This document shows, one piece after another, positions 9,121 to 56,596 of a stretch of 64,000 nt of DNA. The DNA lies in NCBI GenBank assembly GCA_000004695.1, contig CM000153.2, positions 1,888,001 through 1,952,000 of the forward strand, given 5' to 3'. The DNA comes from Dictyostelium discoideum. Its lineage: Eukaryota. A model generated the notes under the pieces. It made no database searches. It saw only the letters and a program-made list of their open reading frames with translations, and had not been told where the DNA came from. A program made the position numbers and the translations under genes. Numbering within the stretch: position 1 is the stretch's first letter; each line of letters begins with the position of its first letter.

Positions 9121-10346
9121 TTTTCTATATATGTTCTATATTTTGATTTTTTATTTTTTATTTGATTATTTCTTGAAATTTTAAAAAATAAAAAAAAATT
9201 TTGACACCCCTGTTTTGTGTTTAGTGTTTTTTTTTTGAAAAAAAAAAAAAAAAAAAAAAAATAAGAAAAAATAAAAAAATAAGAAAAAATAAAAAAGATA
9301 TTTTATTTTTTGTAAAAATGATGATTGGGTCGTAAAAAAAAAAAAAAAAAAAAACATTTTAAATTTGTTAATAAAAAAAAAATCTAATAATTGTTTAATT
9401 TAAATTAATTATTTTTTAATATAATACATACGATAAAAAACAAAAAACAAAAAACAAAAAAAAAACAATGTTTTATTTATTTTTTTTTTAAAGTCTTTCT
9501 ATATATATTGATGGAATTGGGAAATAAAAAAATAAAAAAAAAAATAAAAAAAATAAAATTTATTTTAAAAAAAAAAAAAAAAAACAATACATTGTCGTTG
9601 AAAAAAAAAAAAAAATTAAAATTAATTTAAAAAAAAAAAAAAAGAAAAATGGTTACAAAATTGAACGTTTTAATATATTATTTATTTTTACATGTATTAA
9701 ACTATTCCGTCATTAATTTTTTAAAATATTTATATTTAAAAATAAATAATTTAAAAAATAAAAAATTTAAAAAATATCTTTTTTTATAATCGCAAATAAA
9801 AATAAAAATAAAACCCCAAAAATGGAATTTGAGAGTTTTTTTTTTTTTTTTTTTTTATTTTTTGATGTTAATAAAAGAAAAAAAAAAAATTTTGGTAAAA
9901 AAAAAAAAAAAAAATTGGAAAATAGCACTGAAATACCACGAATTATGTTGGATTTATAAAATATCTGTTTTTTTTTTTTAAATTTGTAAATAACTCATTT
10001 TGTTTTTTTTAAAAAAAATAAATAAAAAATAAAAAATAAAAAATAAAAAAAGATATTTAACACAAGAAATAAAAGAGTATTATTTATTTAATTTTATATT
10101 ATTCTATTTTATAAATATTATTTCTATTTTTTTTTTTTTTTTTTTTTAATTTTTATTATTTTTTTTTTTAAAATTTTTTTTTTTTTCCTTTATTTCTTTT
10201 TTTTTTAATTTTTTTATTTTTAATTTTTATATCTAAAATTTATTTATTTATTTTTAGAAAAAAAAAAAAATAAAAATAAATAAAAAAAAAAAAAAAAACT
10301 AAACACATATATTAATTAATATATAATAAATTTATTAATATCAATA

Positions 10347-10564
10347 CTATTTTGGATCAGTTTGCTTTCTCCACTCAGAGTATTCATCAAGAAGCACGGG
10401 CCATGCACCATTTTCATCATAATTTGAACAATTTGCATTAATAATTTTTGAAAACTCTAAAATTGAAAGCCATTGGTCCATATTTAAAACTTTATAACTT
10501 TTTTGCTATTTTTGCATAAAAAAATAAAAAAATAATTATTATATTAATATTTATGTCTATATAA

Positions 10565-10623
<59 letters not shown>

Positions 10624-11583
10624 TAATCAATTAATCAATACTCACTTGCATTAAAAATTCTTGTAATTTTTCAGTATGTGGATATCTATCGGCTAAAACT
10701 AATTGAAGCATACTACAAGCACTTTCTAAATCTAAAATTTTATTATTTTCATTTTCTTTTGCAAAAATGAAAGCGAATCTATAAATATCTTTGAAATTAT
10801 TTGGATTATCCAAATCCTTTTTAAATGTTGGTAAATGTTGTTGAAGCTTTTGTAGAGAATCGATGTTCAACTTTGAAAGACCTTGTGTAAACTCTGCTTT
10901 TGAAAAATAACCCATTTGTTTTGCACCTAAATGCCATGCCAATACTAATACAACTACATCCTCTGGTTCAACTCCTAAATCTTTACATAATCTAGTTATA
11001 CCATCTGGTCCTATTACATTATTATCATCTTCGTCCTTATATTTATCGAAAAAGTCTTCTATTCTCTTTCCTTTATCTTCTATTTTATTATTATTACTAT
11101 TACTATTATTACTACTAATATTATTATTATTATTATTATTATTATTGCTTCTATATATAGGTAAGGTGTGTTAATATAACTCATATGTCTAAATATTGAA
11201 ATATTCAAAGGAAATACATACGATATTGATACTTTATTATTAACATTATTAACGCTAGTTTGATTGGTTTCAGGTTTAATAGCTACATTATTTTGTGGAG
11301 TTGCAGTTGGTGTATTATTGGTTGTTACATTGCCTGTATTTGTAGTTGGTTCTATTAGTTTCATTTTATATATATATAATCATATCAAAATTATGGTCAT
11401 CATTTATTTATTTATTTATTTATTATATTTTTATATTTTTAAAATATTTTATATTAATAAATAAAAAAATTTGAAATAAAATAAGTGGGTGTATATATAT
11501 ATATAAAATTGCATACCATTTTTCTTTTTATTTGTAGTTGTAGGTGTTGAAGCTGTTGATTTCTTTGAAGGATTATTACCCAT
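10347..11583 (-). CDS. DCN1-like protein (defective in cullin neddylation; PONY/DUF298 domain), 4 exons, 283 aa
   Basis: Exons 11583..11517 ([12 protein letters not shown]...), 11351..11222, 11141..10646 and 10505..10347. The PONY-domain matches include [52 protein letters not shown] and the C-terminal [18 protein letters not shown]. Donors are GTATGC, GTATGT and GTGAGT. Track ORF 10631..10942 starts at TTG and is an internal exon. Confidence 0.7.
10567..10640. repeat. (CAAT)n microsatellite of about 14 perfect units plus degenerate copies, inside the last intron of the DCN1-like gene
   Basis: caatcaatcaat... read directly. On the gene strand it is (ATTG)n and begins 5 nt after the GTGAGT donor. 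Confidence 0.9.
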
Positions 11584-47607: not shown

Positions 47608-47985
47608 TGAAAAAAAAGGATTTAATTTGTTCTAAAAATTCAAAAATTAAAAAAATTTAAATTAAAATAAATAAAATTTCAAATTACTTGAAAATTTAAT
47701 AAACACCTCAGTGCATGTAACCCTAACTTTCTGTTTCTGGCGAATTGTTTAATTGATTTCTATTAAATATTTATTTTAATATGAAATCAAAAAATGATTT
47801 TTTTAATTTTTTTTTTAAATATTTCATTGTTGTTTATTTTTTTTTTTTTTATTTTACAAAAAAAAAAAATTGAGTAAAACCTTTCATCAAAAATTAATAT
47901 ATAAATAAATTAATATTCATTTAATTTAAAAAATCTAAATCCATTTTTTTTTTTTTTTTTTTTTTTTAATCTGTCCACAACTCAT

Positions 47986-50051
<2,066 letters not shown>

Positions 50052-50989
50052 TTTTTTTTTTTTTTTTTATTGTAATAACAATAAAAATGTAATTATTGTG
50101 TTAAAAAAAAAATAAAAGGGGAGGGGTACTAAAAAAGGGGAAAAAAAACCGTGGCTTAAACTGAAGGCACCAAGTTCGCAAAAAAAAAAAAAAAAATTTG
50201 CAAAAATAATTTTTTATTTTTAAGAAAGAAAGTTAATATCTTCAGTTTCTGGATCACAACAAATATTGTGGGCTATTAATAATTTATTATATTTTCTCTT
50301 CGCTATTACTATTGTTTGGTTTATTTATTTGTTTATTTTTTTTTCAATTTTTGTTTGACCAAAAAAAAATAAAAAAAATAAAAAAAATAAAAAATAAAAA
50401 AAGATATTTTTTAATTTGGTTTTGAAGGTAAATATTGAACAGAAGCAACAAAATCCTCATCGATTAAATTCATTTGGGTTGGTGAAATGAAAGAATGGGT
50501 GTTGTTTTAAACGAATCCAAAAATCTCAATGTAAATTTGGTTATTTGATGATTTATAACTCCATCCTTCCAGTTTCATCAACTTCTCCGTTCTATCTATT
50601 AATACATCTTTATTACCTGTAATTGAATAATTAGTGTTTTGCTTTTATCCAACTTTTGGATAAAAGGTGTTTTTTTTGTATATCCATCTCCAACCTTATC
50701 TTTTTCACAAATATCCAATTTTTTTAAAATAAATATCCATAGTTTTTTTTTTTATATTGAGATTGTTGAAATAAAAAAAAAAATCATAAAAAAAAAAATA
50801 AAATAAAAAAAAATAAAAAAAAATAAAAAAAAAAAACGTTTTTTGAAAAAAATTAAATTTTTTATTGTTGTTTATTTATTTATTTTTTTTTTATTATAAA
50901 AAAAAAAAAAAAAATTTAGAAAAACCTTTCATCAAAAATTAATATATAAATAAATTAATATTTATTTAATTTAAAAAATCTAAATCTAA

Positions 50990-51038
<49 letters not shown>

Positions 51039-51161
51039 CATCTATCCACAACTCATTTATTTTTTTGGAATTAAAATTGGATGAGCTTCAGTATTGAAAA
51101 TATATTTATCTAATGGAATAACTGACGAAGGTTGGAATGATAAATAAAGATATTTTAAAGT

Positions 51162-52857
51162 TTATGACATAAAGAAACTTTCTTGAGTATCATCCAAAGA
51201 TTTTCTATCATCAACATTTTTAAGACCATTATAACCATTTTCATGTCTACAAACATCTTCAATTGCTTCAAAGATTTTCCATGACCATTCTTGATATTTA
51301 ATATCACCTACAAAAAAAAAGATATTAATATACTACTAATTTACAATTATTACTAAAATTATAATTAATTAAACATACCTGTTAAACGATATAAAATGAA
51401 TAATGATTCAACAGTTTCAGGACGTAAAATATACCAACTATATGTACCATGAACATTCCAACTAATATTACCAGAATCTGGATCGACACGGAATGATTCA
51501 GGAGCTAAACCAGATGGTGAAGTTAAATAAGTTTTTACGCAAGTTTTAGTTATCATTTCACCAACTTCCATATACTTAGCAGACTTTTTATCATCTTGAG
51601 TAATATTTGCAGCGGCAGCTAATGCAAACATACCACCAGCGAAACAAGCTAAATGTTCTTGAATGTTGGTTAGAGAGTTATGATCCATGGCTGAAAGGTA
51701 ACCATCACCTTTTGGGGAAACTTTGTACAAATGTTCAATGATAGAATCAGCAGATTCAACAAATAGACGTCTATAGATTTCGTCTTCACCATTTGTATAA
51801 ATCCACATCTTTAAGAGATATTCATAATAGGAATCACCTAAACCACCAATTGTAATAAAACTACCACAGAAACCATTTGCGTCTTGATTTACAAAAACTG
51901 GAAATAGACCTGGAATGTTTGGTTTCAATTTGGAGAGAGCATCAATCACTCTATCAGAGTATTCCTTATACTTTGGATCACCTGATATTCTTGAAAGTTC
52001 ATTAAATTCTAAAAATAATGTAGATACTTCTGATAAAATTACACAACCGCCAGTCCAACCTGGATATGTCTTTCCATGAGTTGCTAATCTAATTTGTGAT
52101 GCTGGGAATGGATTTTTAGTGTCTTTTGGGAATGCATATAATAATAAATCACCAATCTCTACTGCTTTCTCTAAATACATTTCATCATTTGTTAATCCAT
52201 ACATTGTTACATGTGATCCTAAAACTCTAATAATCGTTTCAAATACTGAAACTGCCATTCCCTTTTTTTTTTTTTTTTAAAAAAATTAAAATAAAATAAA
52301 AATTAATAAACATAAACCTTAAAACCATAAATATAAATCTAATATAAACATACAGTATTTTTAGATTGTTTTAATACATTAGCAACCCAATCTCTACCTT
52401 CTTTATATTCTTTATCTAAATTCATAATTTTAAGAGTATCTAAAGAATCAATAATTGTTAGACCAAGACCAAACCATTCTTTATGACTTTTTGTTAATGG
52501 TCTTAATTCATCTTGACCCCATGCAAATTCTTTATATTTTTCCCATGCATGTTTCATTGCTCCTCTAACTTGTTCTGATCTTTTAATATTTAATTTTTCA
52601 TTTTGATAATATACTTCATCAATTTTATTATATGGATTTCCTGTTTCAATTGTATTATTAATATTATTATTATTAATATTATTATTATTATTATTATTAT
52701 TGTTTGTATTATCTTTTTTTTGAATTACATTTTTCCATTTTTCAGGAATTGTATGAGCATCGATTTTATTTGTTCCTTCAAAACTAAAAATCGTAGATAT
52801 ACCAATAAGGAAAGCTACAATTACAATTGCAAGAAACAGTTTGATTTTTGTGTCCAT
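51162..52857 (-). CDS. GH47 alpha-1,2-mannosidase, paralog 2, cut short by a premature TAA 35 codons before the expected end; possible pseudogene
   Basis: Exons 52857..52354, 52261..51379 and 51307..51162. The structure matches paralogs 1 and 3, but codon GAA (the E of SETLKY) is TAA, giving minus-strand atg tca taa at 51170..51162. The reading frame stays homologous down to the ancestral stop near 51057. Confidence 0.55.
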
Positions 52858-53348
52858 TCTTATTTTTTTTTTTTTTTTATTGTAAAAACAATAAAAATGT
52901 AATAATTGTGTTAAAAAAAAAAAAATATAAATAAAAAAAAATTAAATTTCAAGCAAAAAATAAAAGGGGTTGTCTAAAACGAAAATTTATTTAAGTTTCT
53001 AAAATGGTTGATACTTTTTGAACCTAAAAACCATGGTTAAAACTGAAGGCACCAGGTTGGATAAACATAAAATATTTTACTTTCAAAAAACAAAAGCTAC
53101 CAAATTCGCAAAAAAAATTTTTTTTGGAAAATAGTTTTATTTTTAAGAAAGAAAGTTAATATTTTCAGTTTCTGGATCACAACAAATATTGTGGGATATT
53201 AATAATTTTTTATTTTCTCTTTGCTATTACTATTGCTTGGTTTAAAAAAAATAAAAAAAAAAGATATTTTTTAATTTGGTTTTGAAGGTAAATATTGAAC
53301 CGAAGCATGATTCCAATCATAAGCAACTAAATCTTCATCGATTAAATT

Positions 53349-53480
53349 CACCTTAACGTTTTCCCCTTTTTTTTCCACCTTAACGTTTTCCCCTTTTTTT
53401 TTTCACCCCCACCCCCCTTTTTTTTTAACACCATATCAAATTTCGCAGTCCCCTACATTTTATTAATTTTTTCACCTTTA
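53349..53480. repeat. C-rich tandem repeats CACCTTAACGTTTTCCCC(T)n, 2-3 copies, plus CACCCCCACCCCCC, unique to the spacer between GH47 paralogs 2 and 3
   Basis: Read directly. The CCTTAACG core also occurs in the hairpin units at 56597..56670. Confidence 0.7.
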
Positions 53481-53722
53481 CCCCTTTTTTTTTAACATTA
53501 TTTTATAATAATTTCCACATTATGATATTTTTATTTTCTAGTTTCAGGTATAAAAAAAAAAACAAAAAAAAGGGGAATGAATAAAGAAAAAGCAATTTTT
53601 TTTTGTTTACACACAAAAGTAGTGGGTTTATTTTTTAAAAAAAGTGAAAATTAATTTTTTTTTTTTACTCTTTATAAAATTACTAAAAATGTGGAAATTT
53701 CAACATTAATTGTTTATTTATT

Positions 53723-53759
<37 letters not shown>

Positions 53760-53968
53760 CACTTAAAAAATCTTATTTTCTCCACACACAAATTTTTTTT
53801 TCCACCTAAAATTTTTTTTTATACCAGATTTAAATGATATTTTTTTATTTTTTATTTTTTTTAATTTAAAAATTTTATTGTTGTTTATAAAAATAAATTC
53901 AGTAAAACCTCATCAAAAATTAATATAAAAAAAATTAATATTTATTTAATTTAAAAAATTTAAATCTA

Positions 53969-53999
<31 letters not shown>

Positions 54000-54016
54000 A
54001 TCGGTCCACAACTTAT

Positions 54017-54267
54017 TTATTTCTTTGGAATCAAAATTGGATGAGCTTCAGTATTGAAAATATATTTATCTAATGGAATAACTGACGAAGGTTGGAATGA
54101 TAAATAAAGATATTTTAAAGTTTCCGCCATAAAGAAACTTTCTTGAGTATCATCCAAAGATTTTCTATCATCAACATTTTTAAGACCATTATAACCATTT
54201 TCATGTCTACAAACATCTTCAATTGCTTCAAAGATTTTCCATGACCATTCTTGATATTTAATATCCC

Positions 54268-54328
<61 letters not shown>

Positions 54329-55832
54329 TACCACTAATTTACTATTATTACTAAAATTATAATTAATTAAACATACCTGTTAAACGATATAAAATGAATA
54401 ATGATTCAACAGTTTCAGGACGTAAAATATAAAAACTATATGTACCATGAACATTCCAACTAATATTACCAGAATTTGGATCGACACGGAATGATTCGGG
54501 AGCTAAACCAGATGGTGAAGTTAAATAAGTTTTTACGCAAGTTTTAGTTATCATTTCACCAACTTCCATATACTTAGCAGACTTTTTATCATCTTGAGTA
54601 ATATTTGCAGCGGCAGCTAATGCAAACATGCCGCCAGCGAAACAAGCTAAATGTTCTTGAATGTTGGTTAGAGAGTTATGATCCATGGCTGAAAGGTAAC
54701 CATCACCTTTTGGGGAAACTTTGTACAAATGTTCAATGATAGAATCAGCAGATTCAACAAATAGACGTCTATAGATTTCGTCTTCACCATTTGTATAAAT
54801 CCACATCTTTAAGAGATATTCATAATAGGAATCACCTAAACCACCAATTGTAATAAAACTACCACAGAAACCATTTGCGTCTTGATTTACAAAAACTGGA
54901 AATAGACCTGGTATGCTTGTTTTCATTTTGGATAGAGCATCAATCACTCTATCAGAGTATTCCTTATACTTTGGATCACCTGATATTCTTGAAAGTTCAT
55001 TAAATTCTAAAAATAATGTAGATACTTCTGATAAAATTACACAACCGCCAGTCCAACCTGGATATGACTTTCCATGAGTTGCTAATCTAATATTTGATGA
55101 TGGGAATGGTTTTTTAGTGTCTTCTGGGAATGCATATAATAATAAATCACCAATCTCTACTGCTTTCTCTAAATACATTTCATCATTTGTTAATCCATAC
55201 ATTGTTACATGTGATCCTAAAACTCTAATAATCGTTTCAAATACTGAAACCGTCATTCCCTTTTTTTTTTAAAAAAAAAAAAAATAAATTAAAATAAAAT
55301 AAAAATTAAAAAACATAAACAATAAAACCATATATATATATCTATTACATACAGTATTTTTAGATTGTTTTAATACATTAGCAACCCAATCTCTACCTTC
55401 TTTATATTCTTTATCTAAATTCATAATTTTAAGAGTATCTAAAGAATCAATAATTGTTAGACCAAGACCAAACCATTCTTTATGACTTTTTGTTAATGGT
55501 CTTAATTCATCTTGACCCCATGAAAATTCTTTATATTTTTCCCATGCATGTTTCATTGCTCCTCTAACTTGTTCTGATCTTTTAATATTTAATTTTTCAT
55601 TTTGATAATATACTTCATCAATTTTATTAAATGGATTTCCTGTTTTCTTATAATTTTTATTATTATTATTATTATAATTATTATTATTATTATTTTGAAT
55701 TACAATTTTCCATTTATCAGGAAATCTTTGGGCATCGATTTTATTTCTTCCATCAAAACTCAAAATAGTAAATATACTAATAAGGTAAGCTACAATTGCA
55801 ATTGCAAGGAACAGTTTGATTTTTGGGTTCAT
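54017..55832 (-). CDS. GH47 alpha-1,2-mannosidase, paralog 3 (3 exons, 537 aa)
   Basis: Exons 55832..55353, 55259..54377 and 54267..54017. It carries the same signatures as paralog 1 with an intact C-terminus ([37 protein letters not shown]). Read-through into the intron adds a false tail to track ORF 55269..55832. Confidence 0.75.
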
Positions 55833-56596
55833 TCTTTTTTTTTTAAGGGTAATAAAAATAAAAATGTAATTATTGTGTTAAAATAAAAATAAAAATAAAA
55901 AATTTTAAGCAAAAAGTAAAAGGGATTGTCTACAACGAAAATTTATTTAACTTTCATAAATTATTGATTTTTTTTGAAACCTCGAAAAAAACGTGGCTTA
56001 AACTGAAATCACCACGTGGGCTTAAAATATATTTTTCTTTCAAATAAAAAATGTAAATTTGGGTATTTGATGATTTTTAACTCCCTCCCATTTTCATCAA
56101 CTTCCCTTTATTCATAATTCTGTTAATACATCTTTATTACTTGTAATTAACAAACCAATTGATCTTAATATTTCCTGTAACTATATTTTTCATTTTTGAT
56201 TGGTTCTAAATGTGAAAATTTTTGATTGGTCCAAAATGTGAATATTTTTTTTAATATTTTTTTTTGAAAAAAAAAATCGATGTTAAAATAGTTATTTATT
56301 ACCTCTAGTTTAAATATTTGGTTATTGATCCCTTGAGAAAACTAATGTCTCTGAAATTTCTTTCTCTCCATCCGTAAACTCATTTTCGATCTCATTAATT
56401 TTTCATTAAAAAAAGTTTAATTTTTGATCTTTGTTAAATGTTGTTGTCTTTATTAAAATAAAATGGATTACAGTTTTAAATAATGCTCAAAAAAAAATAT
56501 TATCTTTAAAAAAAAATAATAATATCTGTTGCAATATATTTGTGTAAACACAATTATTGTAAGATATTTGTTTTAGGGAAATTTTTTTTGAAATTT

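Follow-up and report, generated by a model that had tools for sequence, protein, structure and literature searches.

The closest described systems to the locus reported here are two mannosidases of glycoside hydrolase family 47 (GH47), mouse Golgi alpha-1,2-mannosidase IA (1NXC/5KKB) and human endoplasmic reticulum (ER) mannosidase I (ERManI, gene MAN1B1; 1FO2/1X9D). The GH47 fold is an (alpha/alpha)7 barrel with the catalytic residues E330, D463 and E599 (PMC5035969), of which E330 is the acid and E599 the base, while the catalytic Ca2+ of ERManI has O and OG1 of Thr688 as its only protein ligands and substrate binding in the family goes through this ion (PMC12550843). Here we describe a 64,000-nucleotide (nt) window of the Dictyostelium discoideum AX4 genome (GenBank assembly GCA_000004695.1, contig CM000153.2, positions 1,888,001 to 1,952,000 of the forward strand; positions below are counted from the first letter of the window), which holds a tandem array of three GH47 genes, called c1, c2 and c3, whose middle member c2 is interrupted by a TAA, in frame, where relatives encode an invariant Glu. 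Copy c3 resembles both described mannosidases throughout the catalytic domain, whereas c2 stops at the equivalent of human E663 and lacks T688, E689 and the C-terminal hairpin, and c1 has Ala at the position of E330 together with a three-residue deletion just upstream; judged by these sequences, neither c1 nor c2 can be assumed to be an active mannosidase. With a probability of roughly 85% we read c2 as a null allele or nascent duplicated pseudogene, created by a real nonsense mutation in a young array and tolerated thanks to c3 and other paralogues. This likens the locus to young tandem duplicates that decay by nonsense mutation (non-processed pseudogenes), with which it shares a lineage-specific array, one intact copy, a single disabling point mutation, an otherwise intact c2 open reading frame (ORF), a raised ratio of non-synonymous to synonymous divergence (dN/dS) among the copies and gene conversion between them.

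The lesion can be read directly from the letters. The minus strand of c2 runs caa gaa agt ttc ttt atg tca TAA act tta aaa tat, and positions 51162-51170 of the plus strand are TTATGACAT, with A at 51164, where the corresponding c1 site has TTCTGACAT. An earlier note on this DNA, made from its sequence alone, had proposed a GAA to TAA stop in paralogue 2 and had set ttATGACAT against ttCTGACAT of copy 1 on the plus strand; both statements are borne out, the TAA occupying 51164-51162 of the minus strand. The same note was also correct that paralogues 1 and 3 keep the Glu codon at which paralogue 2 stops, since this codon is read within FMSETLKY in c1 and within FMAETLKY (ESFFMAETLKY) in c3, and that the frame stays open downstream to an ancestral stop near 51057, as 34 sense codons are followed by TAA at 51059-51057. 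The c2 product is thereby deprived of 35 residues in total, the Glu itself and the 34 encoded in frame before the ancestral TAA. The orphaned tail, which is now 3' untranslated region, differs from c1 and c3 by a single synonymous change (TTG/TTA), and the intact paralogue c3 lies 3 kb away. The truncated 510-amino-acid (aa) product matches XP_638604.1/Q54PQ0 exactly, a D. discoideum AX4 entry under the name 'glycoside hydrolase family 47 protein', meaning that the truncation is already built into the public gene model, where it is not flagged as a lesion.

In order to see what the stop removes, the three products can be compared with the Pfam profile PF01532 (Glyco_hydro_47). Both c3 (E=1e-153) and c1 (E=1.5e-152) cover profile positions 1-453/455, and c2 still gives E=4.7e-135 but over 1-423/455 only, with the last ~30 profile positions absent; on this evidence c2 is a GH47 member by descent rather than by completeness. 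Copy c3 aligns over the whole catalytic domain to 1NXC (E=4e-100) and to 1FO2/1X9D (E~5e-95), and the human ERManI numbering used here was derived from its alignment to 1FO2. The catalytic acid Glu is retained in c2 (E246) and in c3 (E238), both aligned to human E330, and the Asp and the catalytic base (D463 and E599; RPE motif) are found in all three copies within GLGDSYYEY and ILRPETVES, with D303 and E442 of c3 invariant among homologues. Missing from the c2 product are the equivalents of E663, T688 and E689, the first being the TAA itself and the other two belonging to the NTEAHP motif that follows it; all three are present in c1 and c3. Across 120 homologues from amoebae, insects and plants, aligned with the fast settings of MAFFT, the c3 residues E503, K506, Y507, Y509, L510, T527, E528, A529, H530 and P531 are 100% conserved, and the same columns are invariant in a 38-sequence alignment (A1).

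An AlphaFold model of c3 computed on alignment A1 (mean predicted local distance difference test, pLDDT, 91; predicted template modelling score, pTM, 0.86) places the last helix at residues 498-510 and, on either side of T527/E528, two short strands (523-525 and 531-533). Since c2 ends at the equivalent of c3 residue 502, half of the last helix and the whole C-terminal beta-hairpin would be gone by this model. This agrees with the earlier note, which had assigned a conserved acidic residue and the C-terminal hairpin to the lost segment, E503 being the residue that is invariant in the 120 homologues and the hairpin being visible in the c3 model. In published GH47 structures the C-terminal hairpin plugs the barrel, and structures and mutagenesis together indicate that a protein without it is inactive and probably unstable. 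Judged by what is known of the family and by the model, the c2 product is almost certainly inactive.

For a single-base change the relevant question is reproducibility rather than chance, and the TAA recurs in a second D. discoideum assembly, GCA_054883475.1 (sequence CM142510.1, locus L001), which contains all three copies and has ATGTCATAAACT only in c2 (L001:14619-14649), with GCGGAA in c3 and TCAGAA in c1 at the same codon; the c3 protein is likewise found there. The earlier note had left room for a sequencing error at 51164, an alternative that this assembly largely excludes, and the c2 stop is not such an error. Over 13 kb L001 and the window differ by 3 mismatches and 6 gaps, a near-identity indicating that both assemblies stem from the same laboratory lineage.

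The array itself was delimited by self-BLAST, in which its units appear at offsets of ~2.9-3.0 kb with 90-95% identity, and it is flanked by a BEACH-domain gene and by a filactin-like actin-domain gene (XP_638602.1, with Ist1 and filamin domains). All three genes have an identical three-exon structure (Table 1). The product of c3 is identical to XP_638605.1/Q54PP9, also named 'glycoside hydrolase family 47 protein' of D. discoideum AX4, and has a type II layout of N-terminal membrane helix, low-complexity poly-Asn stem and catalytic domain, in which the acid, the Asp, the base, the Ca2+-binding Thr and the disulfide cysteines are kept. Copy c1 is altered in other ways: its catalytic-acid position, aligned with human E330 and occupied by E or D in 117 of the 120 homologues, is Ala (GCA, 49095-49093), a private 9-nt deletion in exon 2 (~49111-49119) turns GWTGG into SG, and its further private changes comprise four non-synonymous against one synonymous. 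From its sequence, c1 is probably catalytically dead though full length, and of the three copies only c3 looks competent. The earlier note had the c2 lesion right but missed the damage to c1, that is, the acid Glu to Ala change and the three-residue deletion. Acid-less GH47 proteins recur in the dictyostelid clade, where paralogues comparable to c1 are found in D. purpureum (DICPUDRAFT_157585 with A, DICPUDRAFT_86464 with M) and in Polysphondylium violaceum (CYY_001131 with Q). These proteins are full-length with substitutions, in contrast to c2, which is truncated and has structural elements removed.

Table 1. Positions of the array, its copies, the c2 lesion, the lost residues and the syntenic single-copy loci
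Feature	Position	Strand	Remarks
Tandem triplication, unit ~3.0 kb	47815..56148 (47815-50447, 50853-53307, 53889-56148)	-	self-BLAST
GH47 copy c1, 586 aa, full length	47986..50051 (exons 50051-49416, 49317-48444, 48236-47986)	-	
GH47 copy c2 as translated, 510 aa	51162..52857	-	XP_638604.1/Q54PQ0; gene model, exact database match, PF01532 1-423/455
c2 exons as translated	52857-52354, 52261-51379, 51307-51162	-	ancestral exon 3 = 51307-51057
Premature stop TAA, c2 codon 511	51162..51164	-	in place of invariant GAA (Glu); equivalent of human ERManI E663
Orphaned C-terminal coding tail of c2	51057..51161	-	34 codons and ancestral TAA (51059-51057)
57-nt 'intron' skipping the c2 stop, as annotated in GCA_054883475.1	51122..51178	-	product P0003, L001:12941-14741
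GH47 copy c3, 537 aa	54017..55832 (exons 55832-55353, 55259-54377, 54267-54017)	-	XP_638605.1/Q54PP9
Glu replaced by the stop	E503 in c3, codon 511 in c2		human ERManI E663
Thr of NTEAHP	T527 in c3		human ERManI T688
Glu of NTEAHP	E528 in c3		human ERManI E689
D. cf. discoideum, single orthologue	L002: exon 1 9313-9837, exons 2-3 9920-11215		broken; exon 1 inverted, frameshifted, upstream of exons 2-3
D. discoideum GCA_054859385.1	L003:7454-9464		single copy, intact, 561 aa
D. discoideum GCA_054859355.1	L004:7438-9466		single copy, intact, 559 aa
D. cf. discoideum	L005:4453-5575		exon 1 and start of exon 2 missing, rest split over several frames
D. citrinum	L006:3511-5536		single copy, annotated full length
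D. dimigraforme	L007:6001-8008		single copy, annotated full length
D. firmibasis	L008:6001-8507		single copy, annotated full length

Among themselves the AX4 copies have a synonymous divergence (dS) of 0.030-0.039 and a dN/dS of 0.41-0.81 (0.50 for c2 against c1 and 0.41 for c2 against c3), compared with a dN/dS of 0.24-0.28 between species, which suggests that constraint is relaxed roughly two-fold among them. Derived states, polarised with outgroups, are shared by c1 and c3 at alignment columns 65, 109, 209, 210 and 254 (the middle), by c2 and c3 at columns 270, 273, 274 and 296 (the exon 2/3 boundary), and by c1 and c2 at columns 3, 50 and 116 (the 5' end of exon 2). These conflicting pairs cannot be accommodated on one tree, which points to gene conversion or unequal exchange after the triplication, and exchange between copies could repair the c2 TAA or spread it. 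In this respect c2 differs from a classical duplicated pseudogene, for conversion from c1 or c3 could in principle restore it, and it differs further in being still annotated as protein-coding in AX4.

Syntenic regions of other Dictyostelium genomes were fetched via the downstream neighbour XP_638602.1, the site being the interval between the BEACH-domain gene and the actin-domain neighbour. All seven other assemblies (L002-L008, the last three from sister species) have a single GH47 copy at this site, and among the genomes available the triplication is confined to the AX4 lineage. The codon at the position of the stop is GAA in each of the four loci read from DNA (L002, L003, L004 and L006), and the proteins annotated in D. 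dimigraforme and D. firmibasis both belong to the homologue set in which the Glu is invariant. The two assemblies labelled D. discoideum that carry an intact single copy, L003 and L004, mismatch AX4 by 4.6-5.0% within the GH47 gene, against ~1.7-2.1% in the genes beside it; they are a rather distant 'D. discoideum', surprisingly far for one species, and the GH47 gene evolves faster than its neighbours. Moreover, each of the two D. cf. discoideum assemblies has its only orthologue broken, and each in its own way, suggesting that the gene is dispensable in the D. discoideum species complex; as read from their sequences, these lesions would mean that it was lost independently more than once. D. 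discoideum also has at least one other GH47 lineage, of ~55% identity (P0011). The exon-1 and exon-2 ORFs of c2 gave no match in the read-assembly collection.

How old is the stop? Over the 1128 nt of exons 2-3 the private changes of c2 are E to K at column 46, N to D at column 262, the stop and possibly one synonymous TTG/TTA change. In the 102-nt tail only ~0.3 changes would be expected even for a stop of the same age as the copy, and the intact tail is therefore uninformative on its age. The age of the array does set a bound (dS ~0.03-0.04; absent from all other genomes examined), and this indicates that the stop is young. The earlier note had called the change recent on the grounds that the downstream frame is preserved; recency stands, on the strength of a young array found nowhere else, but the argument from the tail has no power.

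The sequence of events that we favour would run as follows. A G to T change on the coding strand (GAA to TAA) would have hit codon 511 of the middle copy on AX4 chromosome 4, such that translation, if c2 is transcribed, would end 35 residues early. As the new stop falls within the final exon and precedes the old one by 102 nt, the mRNA is probably no obvious target of nonsense-mediated decay and the truncated protein may be made. A 510-aa product ending in the middle of the last helix should, from family knowledge and the c3 model, neither bind Ca2+ nor catalyze, and would probably misfold. The loss would be tolerated given that c3 is intact, that there is at least one other, more distant GH47 paralogue and that the orthologue appears dispensable in close relatives, and c2 would sit in a young array whose members exchange sequence by gene conversion under relaxed constraint. 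Decay of a redundant paralogue is the best reading of these sequences, in line with the pseudogenization in progress that the earlier note had suggested. We see nothing out of the ordinary in c2, which we take for a duplicated pseudogene at an early stage, within an enzyme family already known, and for a tidy, unsurprising case of birth-and-death evolution in a dispensable gene.

Several points weigh against this reading. That the c2 product is inactive, and the gene a pseudogene, is something we infer from sequence. The private changes of c2 are three non-synonymous, the stop included, against zero or one synonymous, numbers too small to tell neutral evolution from constraint. Leaving the stop aside, c2 has lost no catalytic residue, and among the three copies it looks the most ancestral. 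Finally, GCA_054883475.1 rules out an error in the reference yet is silent on wild populations, as it comes from the same laboratory lineage as AX4.

The alternative that survives best concerns where the mutation arose and is compatible with c2 being a nascent pseudogene: the stop may have originated during the laboratory history leading from NC4 to AX3 to AX4 instead of being a natural allele. The TAA is indeed carried only by AX4 and the near-identical assembly, which are the sole triplicated haplotypes compared. Nitrosoguanidine treatment is part of the AX3/AX4 pedigree, but this mutagen typically gives G:C to A:T transitions, and the c2 change is a G:C to T:A transversion, unlike its usual signature. 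The array, with dS of ~0.03-0.04, is in addition far older than laboratory culture, leaving ample natural time for the mutation to occur. We regard a laboratory origin as possible but rather improbable.

Considerably less probable is that c2 is not decaying and that its truncated or read-through product has been kept for some function, perhaps as a pseudoenzyme that binds glycans or regulates without catalysis. Such a role would fit with the catalytic residues that c2 keeps and its few private substitutions, and acid-less GH47 paralogues do persist in dictyostelids (P0020 with Q, P0022 with A, P0031 with M), where non-catalytic roles are possible. Read-through is not favoured by the context, however, as TAA followed by A is a strong terminator with efficient termination, and TAA is the normal stop of all three copies. 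A binding role is difficult to reconcile with the removal of half a barrel helix and of the Ca2+-binding hairpin, while GH47 substrate binding needs that Ca2+ (PMC12550843). The truncation is also seen in none of the other genomes whose codon was read (L002, L003, L004 and L006). We give equally little weight to a reading that covers two copies, in which the acid-less c1 and the hairpin-less c2 are kept as non-catalytic pseudoenzymes (mannose-binding, modulating ER-associated degradation, or acting as decoys), or in which c2 acts as a partner in gene conversion, mended and broken again from time to time. If either were true, the locus would offer a naturally occurring case of rapid sub- or neofunctionalization of glycan-processing enzymes within one species.

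The annotation of GCA_054883475.1 offers a different way around the stop, in which a 57-nt intron (51178-51122) removes the TAA from the mRNA and a 526-aa 'hypothetical protein' (P0003), reading DDTQE and then IIPLDKY across the skipped segment, keeps the NTEAHP hairpin. The segment does begin with GT and end with AG (TCAG), as the six real introns of the three copies also end with AG, its length is a multiple of three and the frame is restored. Its 5' site is GTTTCT, however, whereas all six real introns start with GTATGT; its AT content of 73.7% resembles that of coding sequence (70-73%) as opposed to the 87-93% of five of the six real introns, the sixth being one that a GT-rich microsatellite has inflated. 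In c1, c3 and all homologues, the orthologues included, this stretch of 57 nt belongs to the coding region proper and specifies invariant residues. Splicing would also drop 19 residues, among them the invariant F500, E503, K506, Y507, Y509 and L510 of the last barrel helix, and since invariant helix residues would be deleted, even the spliced product is expected to be non-functional. The intron is likely a gene-prediction or annotation artefact, judging from its sequence, and that it is real and rescues c2 strikes us as very improbable, slightly more so than a retained function; by bridging the stop the annotator has in effect seen it independently.

Least probable of all is that the TAA is an error of the AX4 reference, a collapse or mis-assignment among ~95% identical copies with the true c2 intact, for although copies 92-95% identical are the type of region prone to mistakes in old Sanger assemblies and a single base is involved, GCA_054883475.1 is independent (5,576,411 against 5,450,249 bp of sequence, with its own indel differences), has the TAA in c2 only, and required an invented intron to avoid it. 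A variant genetic code in which TAA is a sense codon was rejected, the organism being D. discoideum and all three paralogues and the orthologues ending with TAA at one shared ancestral position. A scan of the window for tRNAs came back empty and yielded nothing bearing on suppression.

The main value of these observations lies in curation. Q54PQ0/XP_638604.1 is listed as a GH47 alpha-1,2-mannosidase without residues that every active family member has, and both c2 records, the AX4 model and the intron-masked model of GCA_054883475.1, should be flagged as a probable pseudogene or non-functional. AX4 has a three-copy array with one evidently competent copy, compared with one gene in the other genomes labelled D. 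discoideum (L003, L004), and the array matters for knockout design, for mapping RNA sequencing reads to copies that are 92-95% identical and for comparisons of N-glycan trimming between strains. Literature searches for Dictyostelium GH47 and for the accession numbers found no paper mentioning these genes and no biochemical data for the c1, c2 or c3 proteins, and an exact look-up of the 586-aa c1 model in the protein collection returned no match.

The copies also differ in their repeats. Exon 1 of c1 (49722-49883) has 54 consecutive Asn codons in the stem, where the Asn stretches of c2 and c3 are much shorter and those of L003/L004 number ~35. Intron 2 of c1 is 207 nt long, expanded by a GTA/GTT-type microsatellite (~48262-48420) that neither c2 (71 nt) nor c3 (109 nt) has, and intron 2 of c3 contains a T-run of more than 50 nt (~54268-54320). 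Long genomic A-runs on the minus strand begin ~20 nt past the stop codon of each copy (50994-51036, 43 nt, for c2; ~53975-54003 and ~47945-47972 for the others). Homopolymers of this kind are the source of most gaps between the two AX4-lineage assemblies.

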